A stretch of DNA of 64,000 bases from an uncultured Pirellulaceae bacterium (GTDB lineage: Bacteria > Planctomycetota > Planctomycetia > Pirellulales > Pirellulaceae), in the NCBI GenBank assembly GCA_964394305.1, contig CAYMWL010000021.1:7196-71195 (forward strand). The letters are read 5' to 3'. Position 1 is the stretch's first letter. Each line of letters opens with the position of its first letter. Shown here one piece after another: positions 37,791 to 41,289 of the stretch. The position numbers and the translations under genes are program-made. The notes under the pieces were generated by a model. The model saw only the letters and a program-made list of their open reading frames with translations. It was not told the DNA's origin and ran no database searches.

Positions 37791-37910
37791 CCCAAGATTG
37801 CATTCACGCGAGTTCACTTGGCTCGCAGAATCAGCCATACTAGTTTCTGATTGCCCGCGTCGCCCGCTCATCGATCCGTTTCTACTATGAACAATCTTTG
37901 GTGCCTCACG

Positions 37911-39491
37911 ATGACAAAACGTCGCTGCCGGCAGGCGGCTGTCGATCGCACGTTGGTGGTGATCTTAGGTTCGCTTGTCGTGCTCGTGTTCCTTGTCGTG
38001 ACGCTGTTGCGGAATAAGCCCGGTGTCAAACCGCCGGGAAATCAAGCCGACGCGGCGAAGCAGGTTCAGCCGCTCGTCGTATATTGCGCCGCCAGCAACA
38101 AGAGCGTGATCGAAGCAATTCGCCGCGACTATGAACGCGAATTTCAAGTGCCGCTGGAGTTGCAATATGGTGCTTCGCAAACCTTGCTGGCTTCGTTGTC
38201 GGTAACCGGCACCGGTGACTTGTATCTGCCGGCGGACGACAGTTTTTTGATTGCGGCGCGCGAGAAGCAATTGATTGATGACGAGTATCAGCTCGCAACA
38301 ATGCAGGCCGTCGTCGCCGTAGCCAAGGGGAATCCGCTGCAGATCAAAACCTGGGGCGACCTTCTCAAACCAGAAGTGCGTATCGCCCAAGCCAATCCTG
38401 AAGCAGCTGCCATCGGCAAACTGGTGAAAGCTTCGCTCGATGAGCGAAGTTTGTGGAAGCCTCTGCATGAGCACACGACAGTCTTCAAAACAACCATCAC
38501 GGAAGTAGCCAACGATCTGAAAGCCAATGCCGTCGACGCCGGCATTGTCTTCGACGCAGTGCTGCACGATTACAAAACACTGGAAGGTGTCACGCTGCCG
38601 GAACTTGAGCCCGTGAAAGCCAACGTGGCCATTTCCGTTCTCAAGTCGAGCACGCAAGCCCGCCAGGCGCGGCACTTTGCCCGTTATGTCTCGGCGAGTG
38701 ACAAGGGCTTGAAACATTATCGCGAGTTCGGCTTTCAGCCTGTCGCGAGTGAAAAATGGAGCGAGGCGCCCGAACTTACGCTCTATTCCGGCTCGATGCT
38801 CCGCCCCGCCATCGAGCAGACAATCACGGACTTCGAAAAAGAAGAAGGCGTACGCGTGACCCGCGTCTACAACGGCTGCGGCATTCTCGTCGCCCAGATG
38901 AAAGCCGGGCAAGTTCCGGATGCATACTTTGCCTGCGACCTCGAATTCATGAAGCAGGTAAAGGAAATTTTCCCGGCGTACGAAAGCATCTCGCAGAATG
39001 AACTCGTCATTCTGGTGAAAAAGGGAAACCCTGCCGGCATTCGAAATTTGAAAGACCTTTCGAAGGATGGCCTGCGTATCGGCATTGGACATGAAAAGCA
39101 ATGTGCGATGGGCTGGCTGACGCAGCGCACGTTTGACGAAGGGGGCGTGCGCGAATCGGTGATGAAAAACGTCGTCGTACAAACGCCGACCGGCGACATG
39201 TTGGTGAATCAAATGCGTTCCGGATCGCTCGACGCGGCGGTCGCCTATTTGAGCAATGCCGCCGGCGCTAAGGATGATCTTGATGCGATTCGCATTCAGG
39301 GCATTCCCTGTTCCATCGCCAGTCAACCTTTCGGCATCGCTAAGGATACGCCGCACAAGCAGCTCGCCGCACGGTTGCTGACGGCCATCAAGGCCAAGGA
39401 ATCGCAGGAGCGATTTACCAAAGAGGGATTCCGCTTGGCGGATGAGGAAGCCGAGAAACCTGATGACGCGAAGGCTACTCCGGATGAGTGA
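37911..39491 (+). CDS. modA: Molybdate/tungstate-type ABC substrate-binding protein with two tandem ModA-like domains
   Basis: N-terminal TM anchor. Domain 1: YCAAS, YGASQTL, ANPEAAAIG. Domain 2: YSGSML, YNGCGIL, QCAMG. Start may be 37887. Confidence 0.85.
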   Translation: MTKRRCRQAAVDRTLVVILGSLVVLVFLVVTLLRNKPGVKPPGNQADAAKQVQPLVVYCAASNKSVIEAIRRDYEREFQVPLELQYGASQTLLASLSVTGTGDLYLPADDSFLIAAREKQLIDDEYQLATMQAVVAVAKGNPLQIKTWGDLLKPEVRIAQANPEAAAIGKLVKASLDERSLWKPLHEHTTVFKTTITEVANDLKANAVDAGIVFDAVLHDYKTLEGVTLPELEPVKANVAISVLKSSTQARQARHFARYVSASDKGLKHYREFGFQPVASEKWSEAPELTLYSGSMLRPAIEQTITDFEKEEGVRVTRVYNGCGILVAQMKAGQVPDAYFACDLEFMKQVKEIFPAYESISQNELVILVKKGNPAGIRNLKDLSKDGLRIGIGHEKQCAMGWLTQRTFDEGGVRESVMKNVVVQTPTGDMLVNQMRSGSLDAAVAYLSNAAGAKDDLDAIRIQGIPCSIASQPFGIAKDTPHKQLAARLLTAIKAKESQERFTKEGFRLADEEAEKPDDAKATPDE

Positions 39492-40323
39492 AGTGCCGCC
39501 CGCGCAGCGACCGCATAAGGCAGGTTCCGATTGGCCGTTCATGATTGTCCTCAGTATTCTGGGTGGCAGTTATGTCCTGCTGATCGTCGCGCTGCTGATC
39601 GCCGATTTGGCTTACACTTCACCACGTCATTTTTCTGCCGCACTCGCTAAACCGGAAATTCAGTATGCGATCTGGCTCACCATGGTGAGTTGTTCGATTT
39701 CTGCATTGCTCTCGGTGTGGGTTGCGACTCCGCTGGGATATTTGCTCTCGCGATTTACCTTTCGTGGCCGCTGGTTGATTGACACCATCATTGACATCCC
39801 CGTCGTGCTGCCCCCGCTCGTGATTGGTCTCAGCTTGTTGATTTTGTTCCATCTGCCGGTGGGTGGCACGAACCTCGAGCGACAGATGCAGCGTCTGCTT
39901 GGTCTGCGCATTACGTACGCAGAACCTGCCGTCGTGCTCGCGCAATTTGCGGTTGCTTGTGCATTCGCCGTGCAAACGATGCGAGTTACGTTCGACCAGA
40001 TTGATACCCGTGCGGAACAAGTCGCGCTCACGCTCGGCTGTCGACGGAGCCAGGCGTTTTTCCAAGTCACAATGCCGCAGGCGTGGCGTGGCATGATCGC
40101 TGCGTTGACGATTGCCTGGGCTCGTTCGCTCGGCGAATTCGGCCCGATTCTCGTTTTTGCCGGCGCCACGCGCATGCGGACGGAGGTGCTCTCGACGACC
40201 GTGTTCCTGGAACTCAGCGTGGGCCAACTCGAAGCTGCGGTCGCGGTTTCGTTGCTCATGGTCGTCGCCTCGATGTTGGTGCTCGGCGTCGTGCGATTGC
40301 TCGGGACCAAGGTGACCCGATGA
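39484..40323 (+). CDS. modB: Molybdate ABC transporter permease
   Basis: DIPVVLPPLVIGLSLL; EQVALTLG; WARSLGEFGPILVFAG; start overlaps the modA stop. Confidence 0.9.
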   Translation: MSEVPPAQRPHKAGSDWPFMIVLSILGGSYVLLIVALLIADLAYTSPRHFSAALAKPEIQYAIWLTMVSCSISALLSVWVATPLGYLLSRFTFRGRWLIDTIIDIPVVLPPLVIGLSLLILFHLPVGGTNLERQMQRLLGLRITYAEPAVVLAQFAVACAFAVQTMRVTFDQIDTRAEQVALTLGCRRSQAFFQVTMPQAWRGMIAALTIAWARSLGEFGPILVFAGATRMRTEVLSTTVFLELSVGQLEAAVAVSLLMVVASMLVLGVVRLLGTKVTR

Positions 40324-40997
40324 TCGAACTGCAAAATCTTTCGCTTCGCGCCGGCGCGTTCTCGCTGTTGAATGTAGACTTGCTGATTCCTCAGGGAACG
40401 TACGCGGTGCTGATGGGCGGTACGGGACAGGGAAAGACTTCGCTGCTCGAGGTTATCTGCGGCTTGAAGCCAGTCGCCGCGGGAAAAGTCCGACTTGCCG
40501 GACAGGACGTCACGCATTGGAAACCCGCCGACCGCGGCATTGGCTATGTGCCGCAGGACCTGGCGCTCTTTCCGACGATTTCGGTTCGTGGCCATTTGGA
40601 ATTTGCGCTCAAGTTGCGGAACTGGTCGACTGCGGCAATGCGCGACCGCGTCGCTCACCTCGCCAGCGTGCTCAGCATCGAACATTTGCTCGATCGAGGC
40701 GTGCGGCATTTGAGCGGCGGCGAAGCGCAGCGTGTGGCGATCGGCCGCGCGATTTCTTTCGAGCCTGAAGTGCTGCTGATGGATGAACCACTCAACGCGC
40801 TGGATGAAACGACTCGCGATCGACTCTGCAATTTGTTACGGACCATTCATGCCCAAATCAAGTTGACGACGTTGCATATCACACATAGCCGCTCAGAAGC
40901 TCGACAAGTCGCTGATAAGTTCTACTTTCTCGTGGCTGGCAAGCTGCAAGAACGCCCCGTGTCTGAACTTGATGGACTCGCCAACCACTTTCACTGA
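40320..40997 (+). CDS. modC: ABC transporter ATP-binding protein (ModC-like, no TOBE domain)
   Basis: GGTGQGKTS; YVPQD; LSGGEAQR; LLMDEP; ITHS; ATGA overlap with modB. Not separately listed in the ORF track. Confidence 0.88.
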   Translation: MIELQNLSLRAGAFSLLNVDLLIPQGTYAVLMGGTGQGKTSLLEVICGLKPVAAGKVRLAGQDVTHWKPADRGIGYVPQDLALFPTISVRGHLEFALKLRNWSTAAMRDRVAHLASVLSIEHLLDRGVRHLSGGEAQRVAIGRAISFEPEVLLMDEPLNALDETTRDRLCNLLRTIHAQIKLTTLHITHSRSEARQVADKFYFLVAGKLQERPVSELDGLANHFH

Positions 40998-41007
40998 TTC
41001 CGTCCCC

Positions 41008-41289
41008 ATGAAACTGATCGTCAAATATTCCGCACAACTTCGCACGGCCTTGCAACGGGCCGAGGAGGTGATTGAACTGCCGCCGGCGAGCCGGCTGTCC
41101 GAACTGCTGCTGCATCTCGCCGAACGCCATGACTCCGGCCGGCCGCACTTGCTGAACGCCAAGGGAAACGTCCAAGCCAGTTTGCTCGTTGTGGTGAACG
41201 AAGCTGCAGTGGCGGCGAACGACGCAACCACGTGGCAACTCAACGAAGGCGATGTGGTCCTTTTATTGCCGCCAATCGCGGGAGGATAG
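41008..41289 (+). CDS. MoaD/ThiS family sulfur-carrier protein
   Basis: 93 aa, ubiquitin-like fold pattern; ends LNEGDVVLLLPPIAGG with C-terminal GG. Confidence 0.92.
   Translation: MKLIVKYSAQLRTALQRAEEVIELPPASRLSELLLHLAERHDSGRPHLLNAKGNVQASLLVVVNEAAVAANDATTWQLNEGDVVLLLPPIAGG

Follow-up and report, generated by a model that had tools for sequence, protein, structure and literature searches.

A conserved tandem ModA-type protein of Planctomycetota with a predicted cysteine-lined pocket in its second domain

Introduction

In the textbook account of molybdate uptake, one small periplasmic protein, ModA, holds the anion only through hydrogen bonds. The donors to the oxyanion in Escherichia coli ModA are Ser12, Ser39, the main-chain NH groups of Ala125 and Val152, and the hydroxyl group of Tyr170. 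Here we describe a gene for a ModA-type substrate-binding protein (SBP) that carries two such domains in one chain. It lies in a window of 64,000 nucleotides (the whole stretch of DNA that was analyzed) from an uncultured Pirellulaceae bacterium (GenBank assembly GCA_964394305.1, contig CAYMWL010000021.1, positions 7,196 to 71,195 of the forward strand).

Canonical ModA proteins (E. coli, PDB 1AMF/1WOD; Pseudomonas aeruginosa, 7T4Z; Yersinia pestis, 6NIO) share with the tandem protein the cluster D type II fold, and their ModB and ModC operon partners resemble those of the tandem. By alignment, domain 1 of the tandem keeps their pocket of Ser12, Ser39, and main-chain NH groups, and domain 2 keeps the NH positions and the equivalent of Tyr170. 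Canonical ModAs are free, single-domain periplasmic proteins, whereas the tandem has two domains per chain behind a membrane anchor, and its domain 2 has Cys at the positions of Ser39, Ala58, and Val123 and a hydrophobic residue at that of Ser12. For the P. aeruginosa protein, Thr60 has been described as a hydrogen-bond donor to the oxyanion, with Ala79 (β3–α3 loop) and Ala139 (β6–α5 loop) in hydrophobic contact with the anion.

Acinetobacter baumannii ModA (PDB 8ZJ6/8ZJ8; PMC11734730) binds molybdate at 0.18 nM by main-chain NH groups and a Tyr hydroxyl only, and a redox-sensitive Cys141–Cys189 disulfide changes its molybdate affinity. It resembles the tandem in having a non-canonical Cys pair, and its binding set is the one that domain 2 retains. 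Its Cys residues, however, lie in lobe B, off the anion, and are unique to the species, whereas the tandem pair is predicted to line the pocket and is invariant in the family. Pocket-near disulfides that change oxyanion selectivity and affinity have also been engineered (E. coli ModA A11C/R153C, PDB 3AXF; Acidithiobacillus ferrooxidans ModA/WtpA G9C/A166C); these artificial disulfides connect the two lobes, whereas the tandem pair is natural, sits within one lobe, and occupies other positions. Precedent for side-chain ligands comes from archaeal WtpA/ModA (Archaeoglobus fulgidus, 2ONR; Pyrococcus furiosus, 3CG1), in which two side-chain carboxylates coordinate the metal. The WtpA ligands are carboxylates rather than thiols and sit at other positions of a single-domain protein, which is also a weaker structural match (TM, template modeling score, ~0.6). 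Finally, in GlnPQ (PDB 6H30) two binding domains on one polypeptide, which differ in specificity and affinity, feed a single ATP-binding cassette (ABC) translocator. The GlnPQ domains bind amino acids, belong to cluster F, and are fused to the permease by flexible linkers, whereas the tandem is ModA-type, has its own N-terminal helix and a short conserved linker, and has its permease encoded by a separate gene. Full-text searches of the literature returned no description of a tandem ModA or of Cys residues in a ModA pocket, and by sequence comparison the Cys-lined tandem is a previously undescribed, conserved ModA variant.

Results

Two ModA-type domains on a membrane anchor

The gene and its parts are as follows (window positions).

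37887–39491, plus strand: gene for the membrane-anchored tandem ModA-type substrate-binding protein; the open reading frame is open from a TTG at 37851
37947–38012, plus strand: N-terminal transmembrane anchor, residues 33–54; basic residues precede it, and the hydrophobic stretch is conserved in homologs
38073–38738, plus strand: domain 1, residues 75–296, with a predicted canonical-type ModA pocket
38739–38771, plus strand: linker, residues 297–307, GDxWxExPE, short (11 residues) and conserved
38772–39440, plus strand: domain 2, residues 308–530, a ModA/PEB3-fold domain with a predicted Cys-lined pocket

The open reading frame (37851–39491, plus strand) gives a 546-amino acid translation. 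The ATG at 37887 is the likely start because an 89%-identical homolog (P0002) and other homologs begin at the equivalent Met. Pfam SBP_bac_11 (PF13531) matched in two full-length stretches with 254 bits (cut-off 25), and the NCBIfam modA model TIGR01256 gave the whole protein 100 bits (cut-off 62.5). More than 2,400 homologous proteins were found at E < 1e-5, nearly all of about 500–550 residues and from Pirellulales and other Planctomycetota, and relatives are held by at least 544 species genomes.

The full-length AlphaFold2 (AF2) model (predicted local distance difference test, pLDDT, 89; predicted template modeling score, pTM, 0.78) contains one long helix at residues 33–54, and this N-terminal anchor would therefore place both domains outside the cytoplasm. 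The linker is modeled at pLDDT 93–97, and its Trp303, Asp301, and Pro307 are nearly invariant in a set of 84 diverse tandem homologs (30–74% identity, 29% mean column identity). Because the linker is short, conserved, and predicted with high confidence, the two domains are probably held rigidly together as one unit that is tethered to the membrane. Their arrangement did not superpose on that of GlnPQ 6H30 (TM 0.31, root-mean-square deviation 21 Å).

A twin-arginine signal at the N-terminus, with cofactor loading ahead of export as its implication, was considered but set aside, as only about 60% of the close homologs have an RR pair (N-termini inspected by eye). Some relatives have longer N-termini. 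In P0128 and P0134 (705–727 residues) an ABC ATPase domain precedes the anchor and the ModA tandem in the same chain, and P0123 and P0155 carry N-terminal extensions of 400 residues that have no Pfam match.

Pocket residues of the two domains

Domain 1 has the motifs AAS at residue 80, YGASQTL at residue 106, and AAIG at residue 186. Its Ser82, Ser109, and Ala128 are equivalent to E. coli Ser12, Ser39, and Ala58, and Ile188 and Ile216 occupy the NH-donating positions of Ala125 and Val152. The Tyr170 position is taken by Phe233, which is Trp in most homologs. In a profile search of the PDB, the best alignment to solved ModAs came from this half of the protein (104 bits). Judged by these equivalences, the domain 1 pocket is an ordinary oxyanion site of the classical type, formed by serines and main-chain NH groups. 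This agrees with a sequence-only reading of the same DNA, made by a model without database searches, which had proposed a canonical oxygen-donor pocket for domain 1. One Cys of domain 1 also needs mention:

38085–38087, plus strand: Cys79 codon, domain 1, at the E. coli Ala9 position in strand β1

Cys79 lies one residue ahead of the pocket-lining alanines and is kept in 75 of the 84 diverse homologs; because of its conservation, the family-wide tally of conserved extracytoplasmic Cys is odd (three).

The AF2 model of domain 2 has a pLDDT of 90 (89–90 for the models overall). Foldseek searches with this domain returned PEB3 and ModA proteins as top matches, with E values of 4e-18 to 1e-17 for the best three. 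Over the Foldseek searches as a whole, TM scores normalized to the target reached 0.85; the type II bilobal cluster D binding-protein fold is present. The motifs of domain 2 read YNGCGIL at residue 340, YFACD at residue 359, and QCAMG at residue 417. The sequence-only reading had named these motifs of both domains, the Cys codons at 38877 and 39102, and the third Cys in YFACD, all of which are exact in the translation; it had passed over a fourth Cys, Cys487. The residues of domain 2 that matter here are the following.

38877–38879, plus strand: Cys343 codon (TGC) in a G-C-G motif; equivalent to E. coli Ser39, P. aeruginosa Thr60, and A. baumannii Ser66, an oxyanion hydrogen-bond position
38934–38936, plus strand: Cys362 codon in a C-D motif; equivalent to E. 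coli Ala58 and P. aeruginosa Ala79 in the β3–α3 loop, a hydrophobic oxyanion contact
39102–39104, plus strand: Cys418 codon (TGT); at the place of Val123 in E. coli and Ala139 in P. aeruginosa, an anion contact two residues ahead of an NH donor
39246–39248, plus strand: Tyr466 codon; a side-chain OH donor at the position of Tyr170 in E. coli and Tyr195 in A. baumannii
39309–39311, plus strand: Cys487 codon in GIPCS, a clade-specific fourth Cys of domain 2

The pocket register was set by a HMMER alignment of full-length domain 2 to A. baumannii ModA (PDB 8ZJ6). A chain index shifted by +20 gives all five published ligand residues (S39, S66, V150, V177, and Y195) as well as C141 and C189, and we trust the register because the ligand residues and both Cys fall at the expected indices. 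In this alignment Met316, Cys343, Met420, Gly448, and Tyr466 of domain 2 correspond to A. baumannii S39, S66, V150, V177, and Y195, and to E. coli Ser12, Ser39, Ala125, Val152, and Tyr170, respectively. Constant offsets map P. aeruginosa Thr60, Ala79, and Ala139 to Cys343, Cys362, and Cys418. By alignment, all three Cys residues are at positions that touch the anion in solved ModAs, as had been supposed from the letters alone for Cys343 and Cys418. A pairwise alignment of the two domains (25% identity, E 8e-15) pairs Ser109 with Cys343, Ala128 with Cys362, and Phe233 with Tyr466, and in the AF2 secondary structure helix 2 has Cys343 in its first turn, and Cys362 lies two residues past strand 3. 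No solved ModA in the alignments examined has Cys at any of these three positions.

Domain 2 keeps four main-chain NH donor positions (Met316, Cys343, Met420, and Gly448) and the Tyr466 hydroxyl, has both Ser side-chain donors (Ser12 and Ser39) replaced, and carries Gly in place of an Ala or Val of ModA at three positions. The equation of QCAMG with the VPAG loop in the sequence-only reading was right in that Cys418 lies in this loop, at its Val; the NH-donating Ala125 corresponds to Met420 instead. A disulfide switch of the A. baumannii type was considered and rejected, since the positions of Cys141 and Cys189 are Gly411 and Leu460 in domain 2. Because the NH positions and the Tyr hydroxyl are the molybdate-binding set of A. 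baumannii ModA, we read domain 2 as a putative working oxyanion site. The loss of both Ser side-chain donors would also suit a regulatory or pseudo-binding module without a transported ligand, such as a redox-sensing gate for delivery from domain 1. The predicted rigid coupling to domain 1 and the precedent for redox control of ModA affinity are in line with such a module, and the retained main-chain donor geometry argues against it.

Conservation of the Cys pair

All four Cys residues of domain 2 are invariant among 121 close homologs. In the diverse set, Cys343 and Cys362 are invariant (84 of 84), so that a lack of conservation, which the sequence-only reading had listed as a way to refute its idea, does not apply to this pair. 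The alignment of the diverse set has only 10 invariant columns, among them Gly314, Gly342, Cys343, Gly344, Cys362, Gly421, and Gln492, and since the two Cys are two of these 10 the pattern is not due to chance. At position 418, 57 homologs have Ser and 20 have Cys, which is confined to the clade of this protein; five have Thr and two have Ala. The fourth Cys, Cys487, is found in a single clade and nearly always alongside Cys418. On conservation, the earlier idea of a sulfur-donor pocket could hold for Cys343 and Cys362 and is weakened for Cys418, which behaves like a Ser-type wall residue rather than an obligatory sulfur donor. The exchange of Ser, Cys, Thr, and Ala at position 418 suggests a small polar residue in the wall of the pocket, and the absolute requirement for Cys at positions 343 and 362 suggests that sulfur itself matters there. 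Domain-1-type sequences have Ser or Thr and Ala or Gly at these two positions, and essentially never Cys; the exception is an aberrant relative (P0244) with Cys at the Cys362 position. Two metal sites were considered and rejected: an iron–sulfur or four-Cys site, as only two of the four Cys are conserved family-wide, and a soft-metal shell that includes Met316 and Met420, as these are Val, Leu, or Ile in most homologs.

Other residues of the domain 2 pocket are also maintained. Tyr466 is retained in 125 of 134 domain-2 sequences, and Asn469, Gln492, and Gly421 vary little or not at all. Of the two halves, domain 2 is better conserved, with 79% identity compared to 66% for domain 1 in the close set and 43% compared to 37% in the diverse set, and with 137 of 225 columns conserved at ≥95% compared to 84 of 229. 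A more conserved half with Tyr466, Asn469, Gln492, and Gly421 near-invariant is typical of a working site, and we consider a domain 2 that serves only as a regulatory or pseudo-binding module very unlikely.

The two Cys residues occur together almost strictly, with both present in 142 domains and a single one in only two or three. Such co-occurrence would be expected if Cys343 and Cys362 formed a permanent structural disulfide that staples the β2–α2 and β3–α3 loops over Gly314. The pair would then have no sulfur-donor chemistry, and domain 2 would bind molybdate much like domain 1 or serve mainly for docking to the permease. Several further observations fit this explanation: the extracytoplasmic location of the domains behind the N-terminal anchor, the invariant Gly residues beside Cys343 and at the end of strand β1, which would permit loop closure, and the known pocket-near disulfides of ModAs, both natural (A. 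baumannii Cys141–Cys189) and engineered (A11C/R153C, PDB 3AXF). The stronger conservation of domain 2 is also what would be expected of a docking partner. The topology, however, suggests that the loops would have to rearrange, since Cys343 comes after strand 2 and Cys362 after strand 3, strands that lie on either side of strand β1; the two Cys are not adjacent and have Met316 between them. Moreover, both positions contact the anion in solved ModAs and a disulfide would intrude into the site.

Two relatives that lack both Cys residues provide another argument. P0195 is a true single-domain relative of domain 2 with a signal peptide, and has Asp at the Cys343 position and Ser at the Cys362 position, whereas P0201 has Thr and Gly, respectively. 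Both also have Phe at the Tyr466 position. The Cys pair and Tyr466 are thus lost together (n = 2, a small sample), which links the pair to the ligand-binding Tyr and not to fold stability alone. Such joint loss is not predicted by a pure staple, and we regard a permanent structural disulfide as somewhat unlikely. From its residues, P0195 may be a sister type with another ligand.

Distribution and complementarity with canonical ModA

The distribution of the tandem was surveyed in an even sample of 401 Planctomycetota genomes, in which the Cys-type domain was counted at E ≤ 1e-30. It was present in 48 of the 401 (~12%), and 49 of the 51 Cys-type matches lay within reading frames of at least 497 residues. 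A Cys-type domain standing alone was never found, and short database matches were contig-end fragments with a domain-1 tail. Among the 47 other tandem genomes, only three (G167, G301, and G399) have a strong canonical ModA besides the tandem, and one more (G355) has a weak match. Of the 353 genomes without the tandem, about 145 have a strong canonical ModA (E ≤ 1e-32); the two other genomes from the family of the window are among them. This complementarity was seen in several families, although related genomes are not independent. Three genomes (G226, G337, and G395) carry two tandem copies.

The genome from which the window comes has a separate moaD-moaE-moaA cluster (contig C110, locus L010), four to six molybdopterin oxidoreductase-family matches, and an AOR-family gene. 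Its only TIGR01256-like matches are the two halves of the tandem protein. Because tandem genomes almost never have a canonical ModA, and because this genome has molybdenum cofactor (Moco) synthesis genes and molybdenum or tungsten enzymes and thus a need for one of these metals but no other TIGR01256 match, the tandem is most likely a functional replacement of ModA, that is, a putative receptor for molybdate (or tungstate). Sulfate or thiosulfate was also considered as the substrate and is unlikely, since the genome has a separate canonical Sbp/CysP-CysT sulfate system (453 bits).

Two paralogous binding proteins of 285–295 residues are encoded elsewhere in this genome, on contigs C9 and C85 (loci L008 and L009). 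The C9 copy, the only one of the two that was scanned, has a distant match to the tungstate-binding protein TupA (46 bits, far below the cut-off), and its gene adjoins that of a helix-turn-helix regulator with a binding-protein-like domain.

Operon and neighboring genes

The genes downstream of the SBP gene are as follows.

39484–40323, plus strand: ModB/CysT-type permease (Pfam BPD_transp_1); 8-nt overlap with the SBP stop
40320–40997, plus strand: ABC ATPase of 225 amino acids without a C-terminal regulatory domain; 4-nt overlap with the permease stop
41008–41289, plus strand: MoaD/ThiS-family, SAMP-like small carrier ending in GG, additional to the canonical moaD elsewhere in the genome
41296–42048, plus strand: ThiF/MoeB-family E1-like adenylyltransferase of 250 residues, the third best of seven ThiF-family matches in the genome
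42033–45083: PQQ-like beta-propeller protein of about 1,000 residues with a methyltransferase-like insert, the sixth gene of the cluster

The genes for the SBP, permease, and ATPase are translationally coupled, and the 8-nt overlap recurs in homologous loci. The permease scores 194 bits with TIGR01581 (NifC-like molybdenum porter, cut-off 210) and 146 bits with TIGR02141 (modB, cut-off 182.6). Among NCBIfam models, the ATPase matches those of WtpC, sulfate, and ModC ATPases best, without reaching the cut-off of any of them. The TOBE/Mop-type regulatory domain found at the C-terminus of ModC and CysA is missing from it, so that trans-inhibition by molybdate inside the cell, which occurs in some ModC proteins, is not to be expected. 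The same six-gene order is found in three distant complete or long assemblies, in each of which the propeller gene comes after ThiF, but the propeller is not kept across the wider family. A comparison of 80 loci identified the SBP-permease-ATPase core as the conserved part, with the ThiS/ThiF pair adjoining the transporter only in the closer clade and a few other loci. Since moaD-moaE-moaA and two better-scoring ThiF/MoeB genes are located elsewhere in the genome, the ThiS/ThiF pair of the operon is not the housekeeping molybdopterin synthase pair. In six loci (L030, L038, L048, L070, L075, and L089) no ModB-like permease accompanies the tandem gene in the flanking sequence covered, up to 7 kb per side. 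No Moco riboswitch or other Rfam element was found upstream within the window.

The additional MoaD-like and ThiF-like sulfur-carrier pair in this clade bears on another explanation for the Cys residues, in which domain 2 binds a different, thiophilic ligand (a thiometallate, a selenite- or arsenite-type species, or a soft metal ion) with the thiols as direct donors. Such a ligand would also account for a Cys pair that is invariant and never Ser at ligand-contact positions. Gly at three positions occupied by Ala or Val in ModA suggests a larger or different cavity, and GlnPQ is a precedent for tandem domains with different specificities. The permease and ATPase, on the other hand, are of the ModB/CysT oxyanion type, and domain 2 has lost none of the main-chain donor positions of an oxyanion site and still has the Tyr hydroxyl; both observations weaken the proposal of a soft-metal ligand made in the sequence-only reading. 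There is also no conserved shell of soft donors past the two Cys, with Met316 and Met420 mostly replaced by Val or Leu and Cys418 mostly by Ser, and the ThiS/ThiF link is absent in loci of the Rhodopirellula/Rubripirellula/Stieleria type. None of these organisms is known to us to require such a ligand, and a thiophilic ligand for domain 2 appears distinctly unlikely.

Discussion

We tentatively favor a model in which the tandem protein is the receptor of a ModBC-type importer and replaces ModA, with domain 2 as a second oxyanion site that has a functional Cys pair in its pocket. In Planctomycetota without a canonical ModA, the rigid, membrane-anchored tandem would serve an ABC importer of the ModBC type, and domain 2 would offer a further functional site for molybdate or tungstate as tetrahedral oxyanions. 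Three wall positions of this site are Cys in the protein studied here; across the family Cys343 and Cys362 are obligatory, with mostly Ser or Cys at 418. As a functional part of the pocket, the pair would as free thiols line and tune the site with respect to size, selectivity, or affinity, and a disulfide formed upon oxidation would fill or distort it. The second site would thus be thiol-dependent or redox-sensitive rather than dedicated to a separate soft ligand. The residue positions, their conservation, the fold, the operon, and the replacement of canonical ModA come from the comparisons; in this model we infer the identity of the ligand, the redox state of the Cys pair, and the division of work between the domains.

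Several observations weigh against this model. The Ser12 equivalent is hydrophobic in domain 2 (Met, Val, or Leu), and the pocket is altered compared to that of classical ModAs. The complementary distribution shows that ModA has been replaced, not which of the two domains binds. Taken singly, domain 1 (57.9 bits) and domain 2 (47.3 bits) both score below the TIGR01256 cut-off of 62.5 bits. Finally, paired Cys residues outside the cytoplasm are usually oxidized, and a constitutive disulfide is a serious alternative because the domains are extracytoplasmic.

Sulfur could play its part in more than one way. Free thiols could shape and tune the site, or a reversible disulfide could block the oxidized site, by analogy with A. 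baumannii ModA and the engineered pocket disulfides. The thiolates could also coordinate Mo(VI) or W(VI) directly, much as the carboxylates of WtpA coordinate the metal. A more far-reaching version, in which Cys343 and Cys362 act outside the cytoplasm as direct thiolate ligands or as a reversible dithiol/disulfide gate for Mo(VI)/W(VI) and domains 1 and 2 make up a fixed two-site relay, seems improbable to us. If this version were true, it would mean chemoselective capture, a sulfur analog of WtpA, by which molybdate is told from excess sulfate or its uptake is coupled to the redox state outside.

If the pair proves to be only a structural staple, the result would still be a useful annotation, since it concerns an unrecognized ModA architecture that scores below the equivalog threshold per domain. 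If the thiols bind or gate, the tandem would represent a new chemistry for the recognition of molybdenum and tungsten oxyanions and a natural case of redox-tuned metal import. It could then also inform the design of selective binders for molybdate, tungstate, or perrhenate, for which engineered pocket disulfides are already of help. For the Planctomycetota, the comparisons indicate that a large lineage most likely replaces the textbook ModA by a fixed two-domain receptor, with two obligatory Cys residues predicted to lie against the anion site in its more conserved half.

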